Below, in pieces: positions 3,744-46,755 of a stretch of DNA of 64,000 bases; the stretch's first letter is position 1, and every line of letters starts with the position of its first letter. The DNA lies in the sequence record PZ026127.1; one strand, written 5' to 3'. Below the pieces are notes generated by a model. It was not told where the DNA came from. It saw only the letters and a program-made list of their open reading frames with translations, and searched no databases. The DNA is from a phage. The position numbers were made by a program, and so were the translations under genes.

Positions 3744-4078
3744 TTCCGATGGAACTTGACTGGGACGGCGAAGGCCATTCCCTTAAATTAATCGAAGAGC
3801 AGCGTAATGATTGGGACGAGCGTGTAGCTCTGGTAAACGGTATTAAGAAAATTTATCAACTCAATCTCCAGATTGATAACGTTCATCTTGAATTTGGTAT
3901 GCAGTTATTACGATTTCTTGAGATTATTTTTATTGAAAAGGTAAATATAACTTCGTATGGCGAGGGCCAAACAGTTGATATTAAATTATCATCCTATTAT
4001 AAAGGTGATTTAATTGAAACTGCCACCAAAATTCAAGAATTTGCTAAAGATAATGGCCATAAGGTGATTTTCAAATGA
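3740..4078 (+). CDS. hypothetical early protein
   Basis: ATGA overlap with upstream ORF; track ORF trimmed to internal ATG. Confidence 0.45.
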
Positions 4079-4563
4079 ATCCATTAAAAGCTAAAGAATT
4101 ATCCTTTAAACACCGTCTGGCTTTATTAGATAAAGCACTTTCTCGTGAGACGCCCGAAAGTCTAGCAGCTAAATTACAGGCCTATGGCGACTACACCGAA
4201 TATACGGAAGAGGATGTTCTGGAAGAGGTTCCTGAAATCTGTTGGCAGATTGCTCATTGGAACAACAATGAAAAATATCAGCGTCGGATTGTGTGTGCAG
4301 CCAACCGCTTTAAGTTAAAAGACGGTGGGACTCTGGTTATTCCTGGTGCTCGTCATTATTCTAAAGATATGGCTGAAGTTCTCGACCAGGTAAGTGATAA
4401 ACTTGTATCAGACCATGTTTGTGGTGATGACCAAGGATTTATTGACCAATATTCAAACTATTGGACTCGCGAAGAAGCAATGATTATTGCAACTTATGCT
4501 AATCAAGTTCGTATTGAACGTGGCGGTAGTGAAAAAGAACTTTACTCTGAGGACCTTTACTAA
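4075..4563 (+). CDS. hypothetical early protein
   Basis: 162 aa; ATGA coupling; RBS AAGGTGA. Confidence 0.5.
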
Positions 4564-4844
4564 TGAATCTTAAACAACTCCAAATTGATGCAATCGAAGC
4601 CCATATTAATCATGTTAAACGTCTGAATGTCATGGTGGAAGATAATTGGGGAACTTATGTGAACCAACCAGCTTGGGATGCCTTAGACCATGAATATATA
4701 AAGAATATTAGTTCTAAGACAATCCATGGTAATATGGAAGGGTTGAAGCCGTTCCTACGTGATATGTATATTGCAACTAATAAAGAAATTATCAGCTCTC
4801 TTGAATATCAATTAAGGAAATTACGTGAACAATCTGGTAGCTAA
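4563..4844 (+). CDS. hypothetical early protein
   Basis: 93 aa; TAATG coupling. Confidence 0.5.
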   Translation: MNLKQLQIDAIEAHINHVKRLNVMVEDNWGTYVNQPAWDALDHEYIKNISSKTIHGNMEGLKPFLRDMYIATNKEIISSLEYQLRKLREQSGS

Positions 4845-4933
4845 GCACGATTTCAATAAGGCTTCTGTCCATAAGGACAAGAAGAAAAATCTTAAAGAGT
4901 CTAAACGTAAGCAGAAACATAAGGGTAAAGGCT

Positions 4934-5218
4934 ATGATTACTAAGCTCCACACACATAAAGTAACGGAACTGGTTATTCTCATCGATGAGCTTTTTAAAA
5001 TCTATGCTTCTGTACCAGCGGAAATCTTTACAGAAATTCTTTGCGATTTGGATAGTAGCTTTGCCTATATCCAGCCAGAATACGTCATTCAGTTCTTTGG
5101 TGAACGTCCCGGTTATGCTAAAGTAGTTTTTGGCCCCGGATTAGATGAAGAACAAGTTTTAAGAGAAATCCAAGAAGAAATTGATGACTTTGGATTAGAA
5201 GATTACATTGAGGAATAA
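4934..5218 (+). CDS. hypothetical acidic protein (position compatible with an Arn-like gene)
   Basis: 94 aa, highly acidic C-terminus (EEIDDFGLEDYIEE); only positional resemblance to T4 arn. Confidence 0.4.
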   Translation: MITKLHTHKVTELVILIDELFKIYASVPAEIFTEILCDLDSSFAYIQPEYVIQFFGERPGYAKVVFGPGLDEEQVLREIQEEIDDFGLEDYIEE

Positions 5219-5220
5219 TT

Positions 5221-5379
5221 ATGAGTCATAACTTAGAGAATACCGTAACAGGCATGCGTACACGTGAGCAGGAGTGCTTTGAGGAATTCCTGGGAGCTGA
5301 TTTTAAGTTCCAGGAACCAATAGAAGAGATGTATCAGGAATATGTTAAAAAGAACGAAGGACATGTTTACAATCCCTAA
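5221..5379 (+). CDS. small hypothetical protein (52 aa)
   Basis: ORF read by eye, RBS GAGGAA upstream; below track cut-off. Confidence 0.3.
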   Translation: MSHNLENTVTGMRTREQECFEEFLGADFKFQEPIEEMYQEYVKKNEGHVYNP

Positions 5380-5395
5380 GGATATGTTAGTATAG
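5365..5395 (+). promoter_or_regulatory. early promoter upstream of asiA
   Basis: GTTTAC, 17 nt, TAGTAT. Confidence 0.5.
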
Positions 5396-5434
5396 CCATA
5401 TCAGATAATGTCGTACTGAATTGAAGAGAATATT

Positions 5435-5710
5435 ATGACTAAAATTGAAATCGTTTCCGAAATTGCCACTATTGTTTCCATTTTGATTAAAACGGATTGT
5501 GAAGACATCATGCAACGTCGTGATGAGTTTATTGCCTTTTTGAATGAGTTAGGTATTCGTAATGAACATGGAAAGGAACTTAATGGTTTGTCTTATAACA
5601 AATTATTTAAGTCTTTAACTGAAGATGAGCGTGAAACTCTTATTGAGCAATTTAATGAAGGGTATGAAGATATACACCGTTATTTAATGATGTATACCTC
5701 CAATTTCTAA
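5435..5710 (+). CDS. asiA: AsiA anti-sigma70 factor
   Basis: 91 aa (T4 AsiA 90 aa); VSILIK...FIAFLNE.G...LIEQFNEGYE...RYL.MYT matches remembered AsiA. Confidence 0.85.
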   Translation: MTKIEIVSEIATIVSILIKTDCEDIMQRRDEFIAFLNELGIRNEHGKELNGLSYNKLFKSLTEDERETLIEQFNEGYEDIHRYLMMYTSNF

Positions 5711-6360
5711 CGTGTTCGACCTAATGTCCTCCCGGCTTGACCACACATAGACGAAAGTCTAGGAAATCCTAAATCCGGTTTGATATCATACCAGTACAAC
5801 GATATCGAGCCGGCGTAGACGTTATCCAAATTAAAAAACGGGCATGAAAACATATACGTGAATTGTGTTTTCTTCTTTGTAGGGAGAAACACTGATTCAG
5901 TACTTGATTCAAAATAGTTCCCGTTAACTCCCGCCATATATTCTACTGACGTTTTGTCAATTGGAAACCCTCCCGTGTTTTTTGCGTCTACCGTTTCCGG
6001 TAATTTACCCTCGTAAGCCACCATATCCACAAAATAATTCATGTTGGTTGGTCTAAAAGAATATATTGCTGTGAAGTCTGCGCCTGAAGAAGAATGCACT
6101 ATTCGGAGCTGCTCGATAGCCGCAATTTTAAATCTATTGTCCTGGTCTTGTCTAATCATTTCAGTATAAGAGGCATAAGTTGTCTCTTTGTAAAAGTTTA
6201 GAATATACTCGCCTTTATACCAAACCAATGCCATAAAGAACAATAATATTACGACTAGGACCCGGGAAAAAACAACTTTCCCGGAAGAAGTATCTTTAAA
6301 AATTCTATCAAGAAGTCCAAAAAGTAGGTCTGATAATGATATTCCTACTTTTGGTTCCAT
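5707..6360 (-). CDS. t: holin T
   Basis: 217 aa (T4 T 218 aa); LSDLLFGLLDRIFKD..GKV..SRV.VVILLFFMA.VWY and C-terminal SMCGQAGRTLGR match T4 holin; late promoter and RBS upstream. Confidence 0.9.
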   Translation of the reverse strand: MEPKVGISLSDLLFGLLDRIFKDTSSGKVVFSRVLVVILLFFMALVWYKGEYILNFYKETTYASYTEMIRQDQDNRFKIAAIEQLRIVHSSSGADFTAIYSFRPTNMNYFVDMVAYEGKLPETVDAKNTGGFPIDKTSVEYMAGVNGNYFESSTESVFLPTKKKTQFTYMFSCPFFNLDNVYAGSISLYWYDIKPDLGFPRLSSMCGQAGRTLGRTR

Positions 6361-10200: not shown

Positions 10201-10541
10201 TTAGAAATAAGTTCTCCACCTTCGGTCATTATCCGACCTGCAGCAATAATATCACGAGTTACGCGAGCAATCCCTGTTAAATTAAAATCACCTGTTTGGG
10301 TAAAGGTACCATTTAAGGTATAATCGCCGGTCTGGTTGTAATTTCCTTTATGAATAACGTTACCGTCAATATTACCACCTTTAGCAAAGCCAAGGTCGAT
10401 GATAGCGCCAGAGTCGTCTTTAGTAAAAAGTAATCGGTCCTTTAAGTTAATAGCCAGTTCGCCTTCAGCCAACTGGGCCGGTGTTGGACGTACACCGGCT
10501 ACTTTACTTCTTTTAAATTGGATTTGCTTTAAAGTAGCCAT
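7221..10541 (-). CDS. 37: long tail fibre distal subunit gp37 with C-terminal intramolecular chaperone (S74-like) domain
   Basis: 1106 aa; synteny 36-37-38; C-terminal ...[25 protein letters not shown]...[17 protein letters not shown]... resembles self-cleaving tail-fibre chaperone domains. Confidence 0.85.
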
Positions 10542-10549
10542 AATGCCTC

Positions 10550-11197
10550 TTAATAATAACCAAAATCTTGAATAGAATCTTTAATAACAATCTGGTCAAA
10601 ACGAGGAACGTGTCCTGCGTCAGAGGCCGGATTCAGCGAAATAAAGTTAGGAGCAGCAAGTACTCCGGTCATTGTTTGCATGTTAGTATTATTTATTTGG
10701 ACTTGTTTTGCGTTATCTACTAACGATAATCCTACTTGAGCTTTAGTAGGGGTGTTGCCTGGGCTGAATACACGACCTGATTCGTCATAAACTTGACGGA
10801 ATAATGAATCACCCATTACTGTGAGGCGTTTAGCACCCACTACTGTACTTGGGTCAAATATAACGAACGGTGTACCATCTTCCGTTTCATATCCAAAAGC
10901 ACCTTTAATACGGAAAGAAGCTGTGAACGGGGCTCCGCCAGTTCTTGCTCCTAATTTAATACCGTATCCATTGGTATCATTAAAGGTCAGCCCTTTTTCA
11001 AAATACACGTTATTCTTATAATTACCACCATCTGCTTTTGAAACAAAATCGTTATCAGTGGCTTGTGGTTTATTATATTCGGTGTAAACTTTATATGTTT
11101 TGTAAAGAAGGTCATTTGATACAGGCGTTAAGGGAAAATTACCTTGGTGCCATAATACCGAACCTCCTGCTGTAGAACCTAATTTTAAATCTGCCAT
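10550..11197 (-). CDS. 36: long tail fibre distal connector gp36
   Basis: 215 aa (T4 gp36 221 aa); synteny. Confidence 0.8.
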   Translation of the reverse strand: MADLKLGSTAGGSVLWHQGNFPLTPVSNDLLYKTYKVYTEYNKPQATDNDFVSKADGGNYKNNVYFEKGLTFNDTNGYGIKLGARTGGAPFTASFRIKGAFGYETEDGTPFVIFDPSTVVGAKRLTVMGDSLFRQVYDESGRVFSPGNTPTKAQVGLSLVDNAKQVQINNTNMQTMTGVLAAPNFISLNPASDAGHVPRFDQIVIKDSIQDFGYY

Positions 11198-38213: not shown

Positions 38214-38492
38214 ATGTTTGTAGTTCATACAATTTCAGACTATGGTCCTACCACTACAATGGATTATGGTCATGTAAACCAGTTTATTCGTCATGTGAAT
38301 CATGATTACTCATTTGATGTAAATCCGGCTAAAGACCATCCTGTTTGGCGCGAATGCGTCGAACAGGGATTCATTTATGTCCACTTTATGTCCAAGTTCA
38401 AATCTGATGGGCGAATGAGATTTGTGTTCTCTTATCATAAGCGATTAGACTTGCTTTTGGCTGATGTGGCTTATAATAGAATCCATGACTAA
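38214..38492 (+). CDS. hypothetical protein
   Basis: about 92 aa from ATG; His-rich. Confidence 0.4.
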   Translation: MFVVHTISDYGPTTTMDYGHVNQFIRHVNHDYSFDVNPAKDHPVWRECVEQGFIYVHFMSKFKSDGRMRFVFSYHKRLDLLLADVAYNRIHD

Positions 38493-38502
38493 TGAGGTGA
38501 TT

Positions 38503-40026
38503 ATGATTTTAGATATTTTAAACGAAATTGCTGCTATTGATTCTACTAAAGCTAAAGAAGCCATTATTGCTCGTGAAAAGGACAATGAGCTTCTGAAACG
38601 TGTTTATCGTATGGCGTATACCCGTCGTCTGAACTACGGTATTAAAAAGTGGCCAGAACCTGGATTTACATCTCAATCCTTTGGTATGATTACTCTTGAA
38701 GACCTTCTTGATTTCGCTGAATTCACATTAGCCACACGTAAGATTACGGGTAATGCGGCTATTGAAGAACTGGCTCAAATCATTGCTGATGCTAAGGCCC
38801 CGGATGCCGAGGTATTACGTCGTGTAATGATGCGCGACCTTGAATGTGGTGCATCGATTTCTATTGCTAACAAGGTTTGGAAAGGTTTAATCCCTGAACA
38901 ACCGCAGATGTTGGCGAGTTCTTATGATGAAGCTTTGATTAAGAAAAATATTAAATGGCCAGCGTTTGCTCAATTAAAAGCTGATGGCGCTCGTTGTTTT
39001 GCTGAAGTTCGTAATGATGGTGTGACGTTCCTTACTCGTGGTGGTAATGAATACCAAGGGCTTCATCTTTTAGCTGCTGAATTAATGGTGATGACCGAAG
39101 AAGCTCGTCAACGTCATCCTAATGGTGTTATGATTGATGGTGAATTAGTTTACCATACTCCTAAAGTAGAACCTAAAGCATCTAATGATTTGTTTAGTAT
39201 GTTTGATGAGGAACTTCCTGAATTAAGTAAGGCTAAGGAATTCCAAACTGTCGCCGATCGTTCCACTTCAAACGGCTTGGCTAACAAGGCTCTTCAAGGA
39301 ACTATTACTCCGACCGAAGCCGCAGGTATGGTATTACAGGCATGGGATTATGTCCCATTGGATGTCGTATATTCCGAAGGTAAAATTAAAGGCGATAAGT
39401 ATGATGTACGCTTTACAGCCTTAGAACTTATGGTTGCCCATAATGTCGTATTGCATGGTACAACGCGTGTTGAAGCTATTGAAAACCAATGGGTTAACAA
39501 TTTGGCTGAAGCTAAAGCGGTTTATAAGAAATATATCGGTAAACGCTTGGAAGGTATTATCCTTAAGAACATGGACTCCTACTGGGAGAACCGCCGTTCT
39601 AAGAATCTTATCAAGTTCAAAGAAGTAATCGATATTGCTTTAGAAGTAGTAGGTTACTATGAACACTCGAAGGACCCCAATAAGATTGGCGGTATAGAGT
39701 TAGTATCACGTTGTCGTCGTATTACAACTGACTGTGGTTCTGGTTTTAAAGATACCACCCATAAGAAAGATAAATCTGGTAAAAAGGTATTGATTCCATT
39801 GGAAGATCGTCCTGATTTAGACCGTGAACTTCTTATGAAACAAGCCCGTGAAGGTAAGTTGATTGGGCGTATTGCCGACTGTGAATGTAATGGGTGGGTT
39901 CATTCTAAAGGACGCACTGATACTGTAAGTATTTTCCTTCCAACTATTAAAGGTTGGCGTTTCGATAAAACGGAAGCCGATTCATTTGAAGATGTATTTG
40001 GCGATTGGTCTCAAACTGGACTATAA
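38503..40026 (+). CDS. 30: ATP-dependent DNA ligase
   Basis: MILDILNEIA.I.STKAK start and ...FAQLKADGARCFAEVR (adenylation Lys motif KxDG), ECNGW match T4 DNA ligase; RBS GAGGTGA. Confidence 0.9.
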   Translation: MILDILNEIAAIDSTKAKEAIIAREKDNELLKRVYRMAYTRRLNYGIKKWPEPGFTSQSFGMITLEDLLDFAEFTLATRKITGNAAIEELAQIIADAKAPDAEVLRRVMMRDLECGASISIANKVWKGLIPEQPQMLASSYDEALIKKNIKWPAFAQLKADGARCFAEVRNDGVTFLTRGGNEYQGLHLLAAELMVMTEEARQRHPNGVMIDGELVYHTPKVEPKASNDLFSMFDEELPELSKAKEFQTVADRSTSNGLANKALQGTITPTEAAGMVLQAWDYVPLDVVYSEGKIKGDKYDVRFTALELMVAHNVVLHGTTRVEAIENQWVNNLAEAKAVYKKYIGKRLEGIILKNMDSYWENRRSKNLIKFKEVIDIALEVVGYYEHSKDPNKIGGIELVSRCRRITTDCGSGFKDTTHKKDKSGKKVLIPLEDRPDLDRELLMKQAREGKLIGRIADCECNGWVHSKGRTDTVSIFLPTIKGWRFDKTEADSFEDVFGDWSQTGL

Positions 40027-40027
40027 T

Positions 40028-40210
40028 ATGAAAGCTTATTTAGAAACCGTGGTTATTGGATATAAAGAAGGTGGCGATGTCTCCACCGCAGTGTCCCAAA
40101 TTGTCCTTGAATTTGAAAATGAAATCGCATTCGCTGATTTTAAAGATAATTTCGACCGCTATGAAAAGGGTCCTAAATTTGAAGTATACCGTACGTTGCT
40201 ACCACTTTAA
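40028..40210 (+). CDS. hypothetical small protein
   Basis: 60 aa from ATG overlapping ligase stop; followed by terminator. Confidence 0.4.
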   Translation: MKAYLETVVIGYKEGGDVSTAVSQIVLEFENEIAFADFKDNFDRYEKGPKFEVYRTLLPL

Positions 40211-40227
40211 GGCCTTCGGGCCTTTTC
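40209..40227 (+). terminator. intrinsic terminator before alt array
   Basis: AAGGCC-TTCG-GGCCTT followed by TTCT. Confidence 0.5.
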
Positions 40228-40260
40228 TGGCATAAATAAGGTTATTAAAGAGGAATTATT

Positions 40261-42156
40261 ATGTCCGAACAATTGAATGAGGTATTTGACGGCGCTATAG
40301 ATTTATCAGCTGTCAATTTAAACCCTAAACTTAAAGTACCGCAGATTTGGAATATAAAGGCTGAAGGTAATGAGAACCTTGTTGCACGCATGGTTTCATA
40401 TACTTCTGAAGGTGATACAATCCGCCAAGTTAAACCGGGTGACAAATACGTTCATATTATTTTAATGAGCCTATCATCTAAAGGGGCCCCGGCAGAACTC
40501 AAAGGTGGTTTAGGTAGTAACCCCATTTCCGCTATTCGTTCTATATTTGATACGGTTTATGAACAAGTTAAAAAGCTCCGTATGGATGCCGTTATGTTCC
40601 GTTTTCCTACTAAGAAAATGAAAGGTCAGGAAAAAGCTGTACAACGAGTTCTAGCCAAATTAATAGCTACTAGAGCAGGTGGGCAATTCAAGGTCCTTGA
40701 TGCCTTGTATCAATATACAGGCAAACATTCATATGTTTTTATCTATCGTAAAAATAAAAATATAGAATCAATAAACGGTATTCCTAATATTAATCCGGAA
40801 TTGTATACTAAAGTCGAATCTGAAGTCGGTGATGTGTATGTTTCAAAGAAAACAGGCGAAGATGTTACCAAATTAGAAGCTATAGCTAAGTCTATAGACG
40901 AAATAGAAAAATCACGTTCTGATAAAATGGTTATAACCAAGACTAAGGTTTCTAAACGGGCCGCTATAAATGCGTTATATTCTACCGCCGAGCCTACAGG
41001 ATTGAGTAAATTTTCGGCAGAGCACAAAAAAGCTTATGCAGATTATTCTGCTACTAGTTCCGTTCATTCTTCTGAAGATTCTAAAGAAAGCCAAATAGCT
41101 TTAGCCAGTAATAAAATATTAAAAGACGCCTCTAAAGAAATGGCAGAATATTTGGATTATATTTTTAACGGTGTTAATCCATCATTTGAAGTAGACGAGC
41201 GCAAACTTAAACTAATTGCTGATATAAAGTTTGCTTTAGAGGCATCAGATTCTTTAGATAAATCTAATAGTGTCATAGAGGCTTTAAAATCAGGTAAATC
41301 TCATGTAGACATTCTTAGACTAGTCGCTGCGGCCCTTTTAGATGATTCAGTTAAAGGTACTTGGGCTAGAGAATCTAAAATCAAGGAAGTAATAAAATCC
41401 TTAGTAGCAGTTTATACAAAATCTATCCAACCGTTGTTTAAGATATCTGATAATCCTAATTTATCCAAACCTCAAGAAGAGGCAGTCAAAAAGTATACTC
41501 GTGGCGGCTACAACCATATAAACAACTTTTTGCTAGGTAAAACAGATACCACCGATGAAATGATAAAAATGATTGGTGAGTTGGATTCTACATTTGAAAA
41601 TGGTACAAAACTTCCTAAAGGAACCATAGTGTATCGTTCTCAGATAATGCCTACCGAAATGGCTTTGAATTCTATAAAACATAAGGTGATGTATCTTCCT
41701 ATTTTTGCATCAACTTCATTGGCTCCTAATATTTTCGGTGAAATGGGTCATGCTCAATCCAACTTAGACCCTGAAGCTCTTTCTAGCGATATAGATAGTA
41801 ATCTTGAAGACACCATTAAAAGTGCGACCGGAAGTGCTAGAGATACCATTAAGCTAGGGCTAATTATTAAAGGTGCTGATAAAATTAAGGTTATTGTGCC
41901 CGGTGACTTGGCTAATTGGTCTACAGAAACCGAAGTAATTCTTCCTCGTGGGGTTATGCTTAAGATTAATAAAGTATACGGTGCTTCCAAGGGACCTATG
42001 GGTTCAATTGGTAAATATGTTTTAGTGGAATGTGAAGTTGTAGCTACCGAGCAAATCACAGAGGAAAATTCATATAGCACCGGATTCTCGTTTGGAAATT
42101 ATGATAGAATTATGTATGAAGATTCTATGGAAAAATTAGCAAATTTATTTAAATAG
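40261..42156 (+). CDS. Alt-like ADP-ribosyltransferase, paralog 1
   Basis: 631 aa; conserved Alt-type N-terminal module; C-terminal R-S-ExE ART signature (YRSQ, FASTSL, TETEVILPRG). Confidence 0.8.
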   Translation: MSEQLNEVFDGAIDLSAVNLNPKLKVPQIWNIKAEGNENLVARMVSYTSEGDTIRQVKPGDKYVHIILMSLSSKGAPAELKGGLGSNPISAIRSIFDTVYEQVKKLRMDAVMFRFPTKKMKGQEKAVQRVLAKLIATRAGGQFKVLDALYQYTGKHSYVFIYRKNKNIESINGIPNINPELYTKVESEVGDVYVSKKTGEDVTKLEAIAKSIDEIEKSRSDKMVITKTKVSKRAAINALYSTAEPTGLSKFSAEHKKAYADYSATSSVHSSEDSKESQIALASNKILKDASKEMAEYLDYIFNGVNPSFEVDERKLKLIADIKFALEASDSLDKSNSVIEALKSGKSHVDILRLVAAALLDDSVKGTWARESKIKEVIKSLVAVYTKSIQPLFKISDNPNLSKPQEEAVKKYTRGGYNHINNFLLGKTDTTDEMIKMIGELDSTFENGTKLPKGTIVYRSQIMPTEMALNSIKHKVMYLPIFASTSLAPNIFGEMGHAQSNLDPEALSSDIDSNLEDTIKSATGSARDTIKLGLIIKGADKIKVIVPGDLANWSTETEVILPRGVMLKINKVYGASKGPMGSIGKYVLVECEVVATEQITEENSYSTGFSFGNYDRIMYEDSMEKLANLFK

Positions 42157-42164
42157 GATAGATT

Positions 42165-44246
42165 ATGACCCAATTAAATGAAGTGTTCGAGTCCGAAGGT
42201 ACACTGCCTGTTGTGAACTTGAACCCAAAACTTAAAGTACCTCAGATTTGGAAGATTGGAGACGCGGAGTCTCAGTTAGTAGCACGTATGGTATCCTATG
42301 CTTCTGAAGGCGATGCTATTAAACAGGTTAAGATGGGTGATAAATATGCCCACGTTATCCTTATGAGCCTTTCAGCTAAAGGTTCGCCTGCCGAACTTAA
42401 AGGCGGCTTAGGCCCTACTCCTGTAGATGCGATTAATACTATTTTTGATGTAGTTTATGACCAAGTTAAAAAGCTTCGTATGGATGCCGTGATGTTCCGT
42501 TTTCCTACCAAGAAAATGAAAGGTCAAGGCCCTATCGTTCAACGTATTATCCAACGTTTGGTAGCACAGAAAACCGGTGGACGTTTTAAAGTGGTTCCGG
42601 CTATGTACCAATTTACCGGTAAACATACTTACATCCTGGTAGTCCGTAAACAAGCTGATATCGAAGATATCAAAGGTATGCCTGGAATTAATGCTGAATT
42701 GTATACTAAGGTAGATTCTGATGTCGGTGAAGTTTATATTTCCAAAAAAGAAGGTGTGCAGGTTACTAAAGAAACTGCTATTGCTGGCAGTATTGCTAAG
42801 GTTGAAGAACGTCGCACTGATAAAATGGTTATAACCAAGACTAAGATTTCTAGGCGCGCCATTGCAGCAAGCCAATCATTGGAATCTTATCGTAATGAAA
42901 GTGAATTGTTTAAGAAATATGAAGCTACTGCAGCGGATTTTAATAAACCGGCAACAGTTCCATTAATCCCTGAGGCTCAGGAAATGGTTACTAATAACAA
43001 TTCTCCTGCGGCTAAAAATAAGGTTGCTAATATAGTGGCTGAAGGCACTGCTGAAGAATTGCATTACGATTATAAAATGTTTCCTCTTCACGGTATAGGT
43101 GAAATCCAAGAGAAAATTAAAGAGAAAATTCTTACAGCAATAAAAAACGAACCTTTGACATCTGTTAAAGCTCTAGAAAAATATGCCTCTGCTATTAATA
43201 CCGTTTTCGAAGAATACAAAGGTGAATGGCTGGCTATCCATAACAGAACTCGTAAAGGCCAACCTGATGACCTTTGGAACGAATTGACAGAGGCCAAGTG
43301 GAAAGCAGCCAAGACTAAGTTCATTAAAAAACGTGTATATAGTTTTGCTGGTGTGGGTGGCGGTATTATGGTTGATATTACTATTGCTCGTGAGGGCTCT
43401 AAATATACCCCATCACAAAAGCGCGGAATCAGAGAATATTGTGGTTCAGGATATACAGACATAAATAATCTTCTTTTAGGACGTTATAATCCTCAGAACT
43501 ATGAGGTTATGAGCGAAAAAGATATCGAATCTGCAGTTAATAATTTGGATTCTGCTTTTGAAAACGGCGACCGTATACCAGAAGGCATCACAGTTTATCG
43601 CGCACAGAGTATGACTGCTCCTATATACGAAGCACTAGTTAAAAATAAAGTGTTCTATTTCAGAAATTTTGTATCTACTTCTTTAACTCCTATCATTTTC
43701 GGACGTTTTGGTGTTACCCACGCAGGTATTGGTCTTTTAGAACCTGAAGTTCGCAATGAATTGACAGTCGATAAAAATGAAGAAGGAATAACTATTAACC
43801 CTAATGAAATAAGAGCGTATAAAGAAAACCCTGATTACGTTAAAGTTCAAATAGGATGGGTAATTGATGGAGCCCATAAAGTTAATGTCGTATATCCAGG
43901 AAATCTCGGAATAGCAACTGAAGCCGAAGTTATTCTGCCGCGTGGATTAATGGTCAAAGTTAATAAAATAACAGATGCTTCTAATAATGATGGAACAACA
44001 TCTAGTAATACAAAACTCATCCAAGCTGAAGTTATGACAACAGATGAGCTTCAAGAATCTGTGGTATATGATGGTGACGTACTAATGGAAACCGGCGAGC
44101 TGGTCGTGTATCAAGATGATTTCGATACTTCCGAAAGCCCTGTATCTTTTGATTCATTTGTTAAATCTACACGGTTTGATGTACTGCCTCTTTTGGCTTC
44201 ATGCATAGACCTCTATGACATCCCAGAAAAATTCATCCAAGGGTAA
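42165..44246 (+). CDS. alt: Alt-like ADP-ribosyltransferase, paralog 2
   Basis: 693 aa (T4 Alt 682 aa); same N-terminal module; YRAQ, FVSTSL, TEAEVILPRG. Confidence 0.8.
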   Translation: MTQLNEVFESEGTLPVVNLNPKLKVPQIWKIGDAESQLVARMVSYASEGDAIKQVKMGDKYAHVILMSLSAKGSPAELKGGLGPTPVDAINTIFDVVYDQVKKLRMDAVMFRFPTKKMKGQGPIVQRIIQRLVAQKTGGRFKVVPAMYQFTGKHTYILVVRKQADIEDIKGMPGINAELYTKVDSDVGEVYISKKEGVQVTKETAIAGSIAKVEERRTDKMVITKTKISRRAIAASQSLESYRNESELFKKYEATAADFNKPATVPLIPEAQEMVTNNNSPAAKNKVANIVAEGTAEELHYDYKMFPLHGIGEIQEKIKEKILTAIKNEPLTSVKALEKYASAINTVFEEYKGEWLAIHNRTRKGQPDDLWNELTEAKWKAAKTKFIKKRVYSFAGVGGGIMVDITIAREGSKYTPSQKRGIREYCGSGYTDINNLLLGRYNPQNYEVMSEKDIESAVNNLDSAFENGDRIPEGITVYRAQSMTAPIYEALVKNKVFYFRNFVSTSLTPIIFGRFGVTHAGIGLLEPEVRNELTVDKNEEGITINPNEIRAYKENPDYVKVQIGWVIDGAHKVNVVYPGNLGIATEAEVILPRGLMVKVNKITDASNNDGTTSSNTKLIQAEVMTTDELQESVVYDGDVLMETGELVVYQDDFDTSESPVSFDSFVKSTRFDVLPLLASCIDLYDIPEKFIQG

Positions 44247-44249
44247 ATA

Positions 44250-46373
44250 ATGGAAAATTTAAACGAGGTTTTTGATAGTGATTCCGCTAAAAACTATCCA
44301 GTAACAAATCTTAAACCGGGTTCCGGTATTCCACAGATTTTCTCTATCCAAGCACCAGGTAACGATAACCTGGTTGCTCGCATGGTATCTTATGCGTCTG
44401 AAGGCGACGCTATTAAGATGGTTAAGGCGGGCGATAAGTACGTCCATGTTATCTTAATGAGTTTATCTGCTAAAGGCGCTCCGGCAGAACTCAAGGGTGG
44501 GTTGGGTACCGATCCACTCGGTACACTGAACACCATTTTCGATACCATATACGAACAAATAAACAAACTTAAAATGGACGCGGTTTTATTCCGTTTCCCT
44601 ACTAAGAAAATGAAAGGTAAAGGCCCTACCGTTCAGCGCGTATTAGCTCGTTTGGCTATGGCCCGTACCGGTGGTAAGTTTAAAGTTGTTGACGACATGT
44701 TCCAATTCAGCGGAAAACATACCTACGTTCTTTTAGTACGTCGTGGTGCTAATATTGAAGATATCAAGGGTATGCCTGAAATTAATGCCGATCTTTATAC
44801 TAAAGTTGAGTCTAAAGTTGGCGAAGTGTATGTTTCTAAGAAAACCGGCCAGGCCGTAAGTAAGGTCGAAGCAGTAGCGGCATCTATTGCACAAGTTGAA
44901 GAGAAACGTACTGATAAGGCTGTCATTACCCGTACTAAGATTTCCCGTCGTATGGCAGCAGCCGCACAGTATTCTACTGCCGAGCCTGAAACTTTGTCCC
45001 CTAAAGAATTGCAGGTTTATAACGAGTTTGAAGCTTCTGTACCGGTTCACACGGCTGAAGGCCCTGAGAATGAAGGTATTGAACAGATTAGTCAGAACTT
45101 TAAAAAAGGTGCTATTACTAAAATGCGCCAGGCTTCTCAGTTTAAATCTAAGAGCGAGGACCTTGCCAACTTTAGATACACTATTGCTCTCACACACGCT
45201 TTAATGACTGATAGTAAATTTAAACTAAATTATGCTAATAGAGATAAACAAGGGTTTGAAATTTACTCTAATAATATGGCATTTTTTAATACAGAAGTCG
45301 ATAGACTTTTAAGTGGCCTTTCGCAAATCAATACAACCAATAGTCTGGATATTATTAAGAAAATTGTTAATAACCTGAGTACCCGTTTTAAGGGTTCCCC
45401 TTCAGAGAAAGCATCTAGAATTGCTTTCGCTATGGAAGCCGTTTATAAACTGGTTAACGATTCTATTAGTGATGCATATGCTTATTCAGGCGAGCTCATT
45501 AAACCTAAGGACCTAACCAAAGACGAAAGCAATGCTATTATTGAATATTGCGCGGCTGAATATGCTCCTATGAACTTATTCCTTTTAGGTAAACCTGAAT
45601 CCGAAAACAATACAACGGCTATTAAATTGATTAAGGATTTAGACTCGGCATTTACTAAGGGTATTAAACTTCCTAAGGGTACTATTTTGTATCGTGGTCA
45701 GGATTTGCCATACAAAATTCTGCGCCATAATATCGATAACAAAACATTTTACTTTAAGAACTTTGTGTCAGCCTCACTAAAACCTAACATCTTTGGTGAA
45801 TTTGGTAAAAATTATATGGCCCTCGACAACCAAGCCGTTTTTGTTGGCGGTGAAGGTTCTTTATCCTCCGCTGATGAGTTGTTTAAATTGGCTAGTGGTA
45901 GTTCGTCTGATGTAGGTGAAGTCGATGACGAAGAGGTAGAATGGGAAGAAGACGAGTTTGGTAATCCAATTGCACCTGAAGGTCCTGCAGATAGAATTGC
46001 TGAAATTGGTATGGTTATTCGAGGTGCTGAAGCAGTTAAAGTTATCGCTCCTGGTGACCTTACAGAATATGCCGAAGAAGCAGAAATTATCCTTCCGCGT
46101 GGATTATTGTTGAAGGTTGATAAAGTAGCGGCTTTTGCCATGAATGATAGAGTATCTCACAAATACCTTATGGAAGCTACCGTAACACCTCCTTCAGAGC
46201 TCAGCGAATCTGTTTACGATGGTGACCATTTGATGGAAACTGGTGAAGTTCGCCTGATGGATGGGTTCAGTCAATTCTTGGTTAATGAATCTGTTTCTGA
46301 AAGCAACGAGGCTATGGAAATCCTTGCAGCGTCTTTGGATATCTCTTCTTTATCAAATAAATTCAAAATGTAG
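44250..46373 (+). CDS. Alt-like ADP-ribosyltransferase, paralog 3
   Basis: 707 aa; same N-terminal module; YRGQ, FVSASL, EEAEIILPRG. Confidence 0.8.
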   Translation: MENLNEVFDSDSAKNYPVTNLKPGSGIPQIFSIQAPGNDNLVARMVSYASEGDAIKMVKAGDKYVHVILMSLSAKGAPAELKGGLGTDPLGTLNTIFDTIYEQINKLKMDAVLFRFPTKKMKGKGPTVQRVLARLAMARTGGKFKVVDDMFQFSGKHTYVLLVRRGANIEDIKGMPEINADLYTKVESKVGEVYVSKKTGQAVSKVEAVAASIAQVEEKRTDKAVITRTKISRRMAAAAQYSTAEPETLSPKELQVYNEFEASVPVHTAEGPENEGIEQISQNFKKGAITKMRQASQFKSKSEDLANFRYTIALTHALMTDSKFKLNYANRDKQGFEIYSNNMAFFNTEVDRLLSGLSQINTTNSLDIIKKIVNNLSTRFKGSPSEKASRIAFAMEAVYKLVNDSISDAYAYSGELIKPKDLTKDESNAIIEYCAAEYAPMNLFLLGKPESENNTTAIKLIKDLDSAFTKGIKLPKGTILYRGQDLPYKILRHNIDNKTFYFKNFVSASLKPNIFGEFGKNYMALDNQAVFVGGEGSLSSADELFKLASGSSSDVGEVDDEEVEWEEDEFGNPIAPEGPADRIAEIGMVIRGAEAVKVIAPGDLTEYAEEAEIILPRGLLLKVDKVAAFAMNDRVSHKYLMEATVTPPSELSESVYDGDHLMETGEVRLMDGFSQFLVNESVSESNEAMEILAASLDISSLSNKFKM

Positions 46374-46430: not shown

Positions 46431-46721
46431 ATGAAATCTGCATTCCGTTTTAATGGTCAAGAACTGGTAGTTGAAAACGTTATCCCTGCTTCTGAAGAGT
46501 TTGACAGTGCAGTGGGTAATGAATTACGTCGAGTTTTCGGTGAAGACAAACAGTTTGATATCCGACCTGTTGAGAATTTTTCTTATCCAGAACAAACCGA
46601 AAACATTTTTAACGGTGTAGTGACAGGACAACTCGAATCCGAAGCTCCTATTTCGGTTACGGTGTTTGTTAAAAAGCAACCACTAATGACCACAGCAGGT
46701 TTCATTTCGTTCCGTAAATAA
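46431..46721 (+). CDS. hypothetical protein
   Basis: 96 aa; own early promoter and RBS GAGGAGAA; followed by bidirectional terminator. Confidence 0.5.
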   Translation: MKSAFRFNGQELVVENVIPASEEFDSAVGNELRRVFGEDKQFDIRPVENFSYPEQTENIFNGVVTGQLESEAPISVTVFVKKQPLMTTAGFISFRK

Positions 46722-46727
46722 ACCCCT

Positions 46728-46755
46728 AAAGGAGAGCATATGCTCTCCTTTTTTG
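46728..46755. terminator. bidirectional terminator between convergent + and - gene blocks
   Basis: Perfect palindrome AAAGGAGAGCATATGCTCTCCTTTT with T-run. Confidence 0.7.

Follow-up and report, generated by a model that had tools for sequence, protein, structure and literature searches.

The alt locus of a WG01/LQ5-like Dhakavirus: three intact Alt paralogues and their probable assembly from exchanged parts

Alt is the classic case of an enzyme injected together with phage DNA; only the single protein of T4 has been studied, and most relatives carry two or three diverged copies. What such a set of copies represents is the question raised by a 64,000-nucleotide (nt) stretch of phage DNA (record PZ026127.1, the whole of which is referred to as the window), in which three open reading frames (ORFs) at positions 40261-46373 encode Alt-like proteins, here called Alt1, Alt2 and Alt3. 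An earlier note on this DNA had described them as ADP-ribosyltransferase paralogues with constant N- and C-terminal modules around unrelated, swapped centres, and had considered the arrangement as perhaps unusual and suggestive of a diversifying set of injected effectors. The window shares 98.2% and 97.8% nucleotide identity with LQ5 and WG01, respectively, which are Escherichia phages of the genus Dhakavirus, subfamily Tevenvirinae. We regard it as highly probable that the region is the alt locus of a WG01/LQ5-like Dhakavirus and that its three intact Alt paralogues are mosaics of four exchanged parts.

The ORFs of 631, 693 and 707 amino acids (aa) lie head-to-tail on the + strand with a spacing of 8 and 3 nt, and their coordinates were confirmed (Table 1). 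Family PF03496 (ADPrib_exo_Tox) was matched above its gathering score by all three proteins, with E values of 7.6e-14 (Alt1), 4.3e-36 (Alt2) and 2.6e-17 (Alt3) and bit scores of 51.9, 124.5 and 63.3 compared to the cut-off of 23.4. With a T4-Alt-type N-terminal domain (N-domain) present in each as well, the assignment as tandem Alt-like paralogues was borne out. The catalytic R, S-x-S and ExE motifs are invariant in the three-way alignment; all residues of the R-S-ExE signature reported in the earlier note could be located, and no paralogue has lost the ExE glutamates. The ADP-ribosyltransferase (ART) domain would be an arginine-type R-S-ExE mono-ADP-ribosyltransferase. NCBIfam contains no model for the three Alt proteins, and a sequence search of the PDB yielded weak matches only, between the N-terminal helices of the ART and the enzymatic components of binary toxins. 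The ART of Alt3 carries a strongly acidic insertion, DVGEVDDEEVEWEEDEFGNPIAPEG, between S-x-S and ExE (about aa 520-570, window 45810-45960), which divides the Pfam match in two and lowers the isoelectric point (pI) of mature Alt3 to 6.0 compared to 8.8-8.9 for mature Alt1 and Alt2.

The proposed anatomy of each protein is an N-propeptide followed by a basic, Alt-only domain of ~225 aa, a helical centre of ~175-195 aa, the ART, and an acidic C-terminal peptide beginning at an [LI]xE motif. The shared N-terminal region that had been noted does exist, but comprises ~232 aa instead of 180 and is 63-68% identical within the window genome and not near-identical. It matched phrog_802 with an E value of 1.6e-119 over profile positions 1-235 and is 44-45% identical to the N-domain of T4 Alt. 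A precomputed match to the N-terminal domain family PF26846 exists for an identical protein (P0001), whereas the Pfam scan of the window proteins did not report PF26846. The domain is rare: 1.84 billion representative proteins yielded 70 clusters. It is N-terminal in every match except the weakest, and the ART and tail nearly always follow it. Only one full-length-sized protein among the 70 clusters (P0183, 541 aa) is without a recognisable ART, the other ART-less members being short N-domain fragments. A metagenomic representative of 1142 aa (P0181) combines the Alt N-domain with a degenerate ART-like stretch (residues 323-428) and ~700 aa without Pfam match.

The three proteins belong to different types. 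BLASTP showed Alt2 to be 48% identical to T4 Alt, 66% to RB14 Alt and 70% to JS98 AltA, and Alt3 to be 96% identical to JS98 AltB and 49% to RB14 Alt.-2. A remnant of the Alt3-type gene survives in T4, whose alt.-1/alt.-2 match the beginning of RB14 Alt.-2 at 95-98% identity. Alt1 is ~41% identical to both Alt2 and Alt3, and its similarity to T4 Alt (E 1e-99) extends over residues 3-605. Its centre type is limited to 14 phage records, at 99-100% identity in WG01-like and 48-49% in SP18-like phages; beyond the WG01-like phages the nearest relative is SP18 alta (63% identity), which is likewise the first gene of its array. WG01 and LQ5 contain the same three genes in the same order, with per-segment identities of 100% for Alt1, 98-100% for Alt2 and 97-100% for Alt3, and the protein of the first of the three WG01 alt genes is 100% identical to Alt1. 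The two-gene arrays of JS98/JS10 (alta/altb), RB14 (alt/alt.-2) and SP18 (alta/altb) comprise Alt2-type and/or Alt3-type orthologues; SP18 differs in that an Alt1-type gene is paired with a different second gene. In QL01 a different extra gene is present as the middle and not the first one, resulting in the order [Alt2-type][other type][Alt3-type] compared to [Alt1][Alt2][Alt3] here.

The arrangement is not unusual. RefSeq lists three "Alt-like RNA polymerase ADP-ribosyltransferase" genes each in WG01, QL01 and MX01, and in the paper on LQ5 the three genes are listed but not commented on (PMC12895675). In T4, alt is accompanied by alt.-1/alt.-2, annotated as "an old duplication of the first part of gene alt", and RB14, JS98 and SP18 possess two full-length alt genes each. 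Paralogues of alt in T4, RB49 and 44RR were already described by Nolan et al. 2006 (PMC1524935), and a 2026 paper reported two Alt paralogues in a Tequatrovirus and proposed their functional divergence (PMC13600099). A tblastn search with the N-domain detected 1,808 places in 1,202 phage records. Among those with a Dhakavirus-type N-domain, representing ~38 distinct phages, three copies were present in ~16 and two in ~22; two is also the number in the majority of Tequatroviruses. As a rule, phages of this group thus carry their Alt genes in tandem. The identical three-gene arrangement is not found in all T-even references, but arrays of more than one copy are the norm there, three copies occur commonly in Dhakavirus, and the array had been annotated before. 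Two apparent cases of additional copies were discarded. In Pseudomonas phage PsgM02F, the seeming array of three is produced by the point at which the circularly permuted genome was linearised, and the extra alt places in phage 04086 (GenBank OR842557) appear to result from an assembly artefact. The third alt gene of the latter (positions 10240-11000 of comparison sequence L006) contains one N and a duplicated N-domain stretch in a phage otherwise 99.7% identical, a defect that inflates the apparent copy number and shortens the annotated coding sequence.

One explanation for several copies is redundancy, that is, a higher dose of one activity or genes heading for decay like the second copy of T4. 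Indeed, T4 can do without alt (PMC9026906), little is left of its second copy, and close relatives possess anything from one to three copies. However, all three genes of the window are intact with complete catalytic and processing motifs, and orthologues of each type are retained in other genera. The protein sequences of Alt1, Alt2 and Alt3 differ by about 60%, and synonymous sites are saturated between the paralogues in every segment, with a proportion of synonymous differences (pS) of 0.62-0.84. In close orthologue pairs, the ratio of nonsynonymous to synonymous divergence (dN/dS) was 0.00-0.05 in every scorable segment, the centre included, which indicates strong purifying selection on each gene. 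Saturated synonymous sites and low dN/dS together argue for old, separately kept allele types which are neither recent duplicates nor decaying, and redundancy appears improbable.

The identities of the individual segments differ in their pattern. N-domains are 68% identical within RB14, a value similar to that of the window, but only 42-47% identical between the two genera regardless of paralogue type. The ART groups by type, with 94% identity between Alt2 and RB14 Alt and 58% between Alt3 and RB14 Alt.-2 compared to 35-42% across types. Between the paralogues of the window it is 37-41% identical, barely above any two Alt types, and the C-terminal tail only 16-41%, so that a C-terminal ART module shared by the three proteins, as proposed in the earlier note, was not recovered. 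The likeness of the N-domains within one genome might be explained by ongoing gene conversion between neighbours, i.e. concerted evolution, instead of ancient recombination combined with selection for an old packaging function that all three share, and this explanation could also draw on a 29-nt stretch identical in Alt1 and Alt2 (Table 1) and on the near-identical copy of the Alt3 N-terminus in the middle gene of QL01 described below. Recent conversion between the N-domains of the window was nevertheless ruled out by saturated synonymous sites (pS 0.62-0.83), and outside Tequatrovirus the N-domains form three groups that follow paralogue type and position and not the genome. We thus give concerted evolution little chance.

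Exchange of parts is most evident in Alt2, the mosaic structure of which was mapped by sliding-window identity (Table 1). By segment, its N-domain and tail are 97% and 98% identical to those of JS98 AltA, and its centre and ART 68% and 94% identical to those of RB14 Alt. Synonymous divergence (dS) between Alt2 and RB14 Alt falls from 3.0 in the N-domain to 2.0 in the centre and 0.53 in the ART; since it is unequal along the gene, the identity steps reflect different histories and not different constraint. From the steps, breakpoints can be placed at around residues 240, 410 and 625, the third of which coincides with the site homologous to the cleavage site LTE-619 of the T4 protease gp21. This position at the predicted C-terminal gp21 site argues that the C-propeptide moves together with the N-domain, separately from the enzyme part. 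The earlier view of modular proteins with the centre as their most divergent part is supported, and the dS values show that a recombination breakpoint does lie between centre and ART in Alt2.

Further members of the family point in the same direction. The middle gene of QL01 (positions 3851-5896 of comparison sequence L005) shows 96-99% nucleotide identity to the start of Alt3 and JS98 AltB over its first ~50 codons; beyond, the identity to Alt3 fades, and centre and ART resemble SP18 altb. Judged by this pattern, the gene is a chimera with the N-terminus of the neighbouring paralogue. In a 684-aa gene of Bp7, an Alt3-like N-domain is joined to a T4 Alt-like centre and ART. A recent event might be recorded in the comparison with WG01 (sequence L001), in which dS amounts to 0.13-0.31 over Alt2 and the Alt3 N-domain (window 42165-44951) but only 0.00-0.06 in Alt1 and the rest of Alt3, a patch that points to recent recombination inside the array. 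The 29-nt match of Alt1 and Alt2, the longest exact nucleotide match between paralogues, sits at the junction of N-domain and centre, where mosaic breakpoints fall, and is a plausible crossover site or recombination hot spot. In neighbour-joining trees, which were calculated without support values from short and highly diverged segments, the topologies of centre and ART are largely alike and that of the N-domain is incongruent with both. Taken together, the patterns indicate that N-domain and C-propeptide are co-inherited as a lineage-specific chassis and that the family has been reassorted at three junctions.

The centres deserve separate consideration, as they were at the heart of the original proposal: constant delivery (N-terminal) and catalytic (C-terminal) modules, with only the centre swapped for unrelated sequence so as to diversify target recognition. 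The poorly alignable part is ~174-194 aa long and not 250-300 aa as first estimated, and its last ~40 residues lie inside the Pfam ART match, which begins at residue 378 in Alt2. That the centres are unrelated holds at the sequence level. BLASTP detected nothing between the centre of Alt2 and those of Alt1 or Alt3, and between Alt1 and Alt3 only a match of E 0.008 over 59 aa; transitive clustering likewise left the three centre types separate. In profile-profile comparisons of cores from which the first 11 and last ~42 residues had been removed, the Alt2-type did not score above block-shuffled controls against the Alt1- and Alt3-types, and Alt1-type versus Alt3-type showed a marginal excess over the shuffles. 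An apparently significant, colinear hhalign match of the whole Alt2-type centre to the Alt1- and Alt3-types (global E 2.8e-6, above 30/30 block shuffles) disappeared after trimming, as it was due to the conserved junction and the first ART helix. The same flank caveat applies to an iterative hidden Markov model search, which sorted 185 centre segments into an Alt1 plus Alt3 class of 68 and an Alt2 class of 101, and the matching of each centre to the same region of phrog_802 was discounted because this profile mixes all Alt types.

At the level of structure, AlphaFold2 predicts an all-alpha fold for the centres of both Alt1 and Alt2, which are like-sized and built from a colinear series of ~9-11 helices. 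Foldseek searches with these two models gave no cross-type match, each model matching its own type. Both models weakly matched the same Acinetobacter "split Alt" proteins; these neighbours, the only ones common to both models (BFVD entries I3WW50 and A0A410T5F4, from the Acinetobacter phages ZZ1 and Henu6), are 463-472 aa long and carry the annotation "split RNA polymerase ADP-ribosylase". The Alt2 centre has no counterpart among solved structures, and the fold matches gave no clue to function. On balance, we lean towards the centres being one fast-evolving helical domain that has diverged beyond sequence recognition, while they may instead represent non-homologous replacement.

For the proposal of a swapped centre between constant modules, this leaves a mixed picture. 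The centre cores lack demonstrable similarity between types, conservation among orthologues is always lowest in the centre (37% identity compared to 62% in the ART for Alt2 and JS98 AltA, and 49% compared to 70% for Alt1 and SP18 alta), and in Alt2 the centre differs in history from the ART relative to RB14 Alt, as seen from their dS values. But the ART is no constant module either, and the largely congruent trees of centre and ART argue that these two parts usually travel together, with the N-domain as the part that differs. The equal size of the centres and the colinear all-alpha models of two of them (Alt1 and Alt2) fit old divergence as well as replacement. Nor are the centres diversifying: their dN/dS of 0.00-0.05 within a type indicates strong purifying selection, no positive selection was seen in close pairs (dN/dS <=0.05), and the variation arises by exchange of old alleles and not by rapid point change. 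In C3/VIP2-type ARTs, moreover, substrate choice depends on loops within the ART domain, and in Alt1, Alt2 and Alt3 the stretch between S-x-S and ExE is highly variable as well. Exclusive swapping of the centre is thus an unlikely explanation, and the idea of the centre as the target-recognition part is a guess.

By homology, the mode of action of the three paralogues would most likely follow that of T4 Alt. About 40 molecules of T4 Alt are present per prohead core (PMC9958956). The gp21 protease cuts the protein after ITE-6 and LTE-619, and the C-terminal cut, known from mass spectrometry in 2017, takes off 63 residues to give a mature protein of 68.2 kDa (PMC5694885). Mature Alt leaves the head together with the DNA (PMC9026906), ADP-ribosylates RNA polymerase alpha (Arg265) and other proteins, and inactivates the toxin MazF (PMC5512222, PMC10286901). 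In a T4-like phage of Klebsiella, virion peptides of its single ART were abundant (PMC13119998). Alignment revealed [LI]xE at both sites homologous to the T4 gp21 cuts in Alt1, Alt2 and Alt3 (Table 1), and family-wide the motif is present at the N-site of 166/186 members and at the C-site of 142/145. Cleavage there would yield mature proteins of 65.3 (Alt1), 69.5 (Alt2) and 71.1 kDa (Alt3). Each N-domain is strongly basic (pI 9.7-9.8, net charge +13), which is expected for proteins embedded in packaged DNA, and the predicted C-propeptides of all three are acidic (pI 4.1-4.5). By analogy with T4 Alt, packaging, cleavage, injection and enzymatic activity may be assumed for all three proteins: each precursor would be built into the prohead core and trimmed at both ends by the gp21 protease, the mature proteins would stay in the head with the DNA and be injected, and in the new host they would move ADP-ribose from NAD+ to host proteins ahead of any phage gene expression. 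The family itself probably evolves by recombination between T-even phages that infect the same cell, with crossovers at the borders of the four parts, N-domain and C-propeptide following the phage lineage and centre and ART pieces crossing lineages and genera. Whole cassettes are gained or lost as well, so that T4 has one and a remnant, JS98, RB14 and SP18 have two each, and the phage of the window and QL01 have three.

Several known systems help to place these proteins. With T4 Alt (gpAlt, NP_049811) they share the locus between gene 30/alt.1 and alt.-3/gene 54, the four-part layout, R-S-ExE, [LI]xE at the two gp21 cut positions, the upstream hairpin and the late-promoter position, Alt2 being the direct orthologue. 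They differ from it in the three intact genes, in N-domains of less than half identity (see above), in the centres of Alt1 and Alt3, which lack detectable similarity to that of T4 Alt, and in the truncated C-propeptide of Alt1. ModA and ModB of T4 are tandem phage paralogues of the R-S-E clade of ARTs as well and provide a precedent for substrate divergence of neighbours (PMC10468400; PMC5512222). Unlike the Alt proteins, however, they are early proteins of ~200 aa which are made after infection from another locus, are not packaged, and lack the Alt N-domain, centre and propeptides. Polymorphic toxins and MuF-fused, head-packaged effectors resemble the Alt family in combining a lineage-specific delivery part with an exchangeable effector part (PMC5512222, PMC9503650); MuF-fused effectors, too, travel in the phage head and have their genes close to those for morphogenesis. 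But the Alt N-domain is not MuF, and the cargo of Alt is always an Alt-type ART with the exceptions of P0183 and P0181, so that we are dealing with reassortment within one family and not with true cargo polymorphism.

A number of points weigh against the explanation favoured here. For packaging and cleavage, the extrapolation is from T4 Alt, the counterpart of Alt2 only, and the LQ5 paper goes no further than listing the genes. The C-propeptide of Alt1 is divergent and only 30 aa long compared to 54-62 aa in Alt2 and Alt3, and is without the conserved YDGDxLMETGE motif; shorter and divergent as it is, handling of Alt1 may differ. The box CATAAATA upstream of Alt1 deviates by one mismatch from the T4 late consensus TATAAATA. 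The kind of tree from which the joint history of centre and ART was read belongs here too, as does the missing cross-type Foldseek match of the Alt1 and Alt2 centre models, and distinct target sets for the three enzymes are suggested by their divergence alone. We treat as possible, though rather doubtful, the further-reaching proposal that the alt locus is a reassorting array of effector cassettes, in which a lineage-specific packaging chassis of N-domain and C-propeptide carries interchangeable centre/ART "warheads" and the three enzymes hit different host proteins. The warheads would pass between T-even genera by recombination at domain borders, one of which falls on the C-terminal gp21 site.

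The surroundings of the array agree with its identification. The gene order is that of T4, with gene 30 (DNA ligase), alt.1, the alt array, alt.-3 and then genes 54, 48 and 29, which run on the other strand and converge on the array; according to the ORF map and PHROG matches, the position of the locus corresponds to that in T4, RB14, JS98 and SP18. The small conserved ORF upstream of the array occupies the position of T4 alt.1 and of WG01 ORF202, and its real start is probably downstream of 39986. The hairpin which follows it is identical to the GGCC-TTCG-GGCC hairpin preceding T4 alt, and TATAAATA occupies the equivalent place of the CATAAATA box in T4. At the other end, the homologue of alt.-3 is syntenic with alt.-3 of T4, RB14, JS98 and SP18. 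A scan of the sequence revealed no promoter or terminator candidates of note inside the array, and the simplest reading is that it is probably transcribed as one late unit. The start of the DNA ligase ORF (38464-40026, 520 aa) lies 13 codons 5' of that given for the WG01 gene (1,524 nt), and the ORF overlaps the previous one; the WG01-annotated start is probably correct.

Table 1. Coordinates of the alt array, of the parts of its proteins and of the flanking elements (positions refer to the window unless given as residues).
Feature	Position	Strand	Details
alt.1 homologue, small conserved ORF upstream of array	39986..40210	+	phrog_1976, E 4e-31, residues 15-74
G+C-rich hairpin GGCC-TTCG-GGCC with flanking A/T pairs, then T run	40209..40224	+	just past alt.1; read from sequence
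Late-promoter-like box CATAAATA	40231..40238	+	22 nt 5' of Alt1 ATG; motif match only, putative function
GAGGA ribosome-binding site ahead of Alt1	40250-40254	+	
Alt1, 631 aa, rare type	40261..42156	+	predicted N-propeptide aa 1-7, basic N-domain 8-233, helical centre 234-407, ART 408-601, C-propeptide 602-631
Alt1 N-domain	40282-40959	+	
Alt1 C-terminal peptide	42064-42153	+	
Alt1 sites homologous to gp21 cuts	LNE-7 / ITE-601		LNE-7 is followed by VF
Alt1 catalytic residues	R459, S484/S486, E556/E558		
Alt2, 693 aa, T4 Alt orthologue	42165..44246	+	N-propeptide aa 1-6, N-domain 7-231, centre 232-420, ART 421-631, C-propeptide 632-693
Alt2 N-domain	42183-42857	+	
Alt2 C-terminal peptide	44058-44243	+	
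Alt2 sites homologous to gp21 cuts	LNE-6 / LQE-631		
Alt2 catalytic residues	R479, S504/S506, E586/E588		
Alt2 mosaic, N-domain	residues 1 to ~245		nucleotide identity to JS98 AltA 83-97%, to RB14 Alt 41-64% (to residue 222)
Alt2 mosaic, centre	residues 253-417		nucleotide identity to JS98 AltA ~41-52%, to RB14 Alt 62-79%
Alt2 mosaic, ART	residues 418-620		nucleotide identity to JS98 AltA 53-77%, to RB14 Alt 78-94%
Alt2 mosaic, tail	residues 624-693		nucleotide identity to JS98 AltA 90-99%, to RB14 Alt 47-63%
29-nt stretch identical in Alt1 and Alt2	40919-40947 (Alt1), 42817-42845 (Alt2)	+	encodes DKMVITKTK
Alt3, 707 aa, JS98 AltB / RB14 Alt.-2 orthologue	44250..46373	+	N-propeptide aa 1-6, N-domain 7-234, centre 235-428, ART 429-653, C-propeptide 654-707
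Alt3 N-domain	44268-44951	+	
Alt3 C-terminal peptide	46209-46370	+	
Alt3 sites homologous to gp21 cuts	LNE-6 / LSE-653		
Alt3 catalytic residues	R482, S507/S509, E610/E612		
alt.-3 homologue, conserved small ORF ending array	46431..46721	+	phrog_1739, E 2.6e-42
Terminator-like hairpin between alt.-3 and convergent gene 54	46728..46751	+	10-bp stem, then T run

The array itself is ordinary and already annotated, and the present analysis is a modest refinement of a known system. What it adds is the assignment of the genes to allele types, the identification of N- and C-terminal processing motifs in Alt1, Alt2 and Alt3, and evidence for reassortment at three junctions with co-inheritance of the chassis. 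The role of the two propeptides of Alt is a question raised in the T4 literature, for which this co-inheritance gives a concrete hypothesis: as the N-domain is inherited along with the C-terminal peptide that the protease removes, and independently of the enzyme part, the propeptides are suggested to serve lineage-specific targeting to the prohead core. If the cassette array exists as proposed, the targets of its enzymes might include components of host defence, as in the case of T4 Alt and MazF, and the composition of the array would contribute to the range of strains that a phage can take over. Several WG01-like phages are under development against avian pathogenic E. coli. Should the substrates of the paralogues differ, T-even phages would inject a small, reassortable set of host-modifying enzymes, which would bear on host takeover, on the evasion of defence and on the choice of therapeutic phages.

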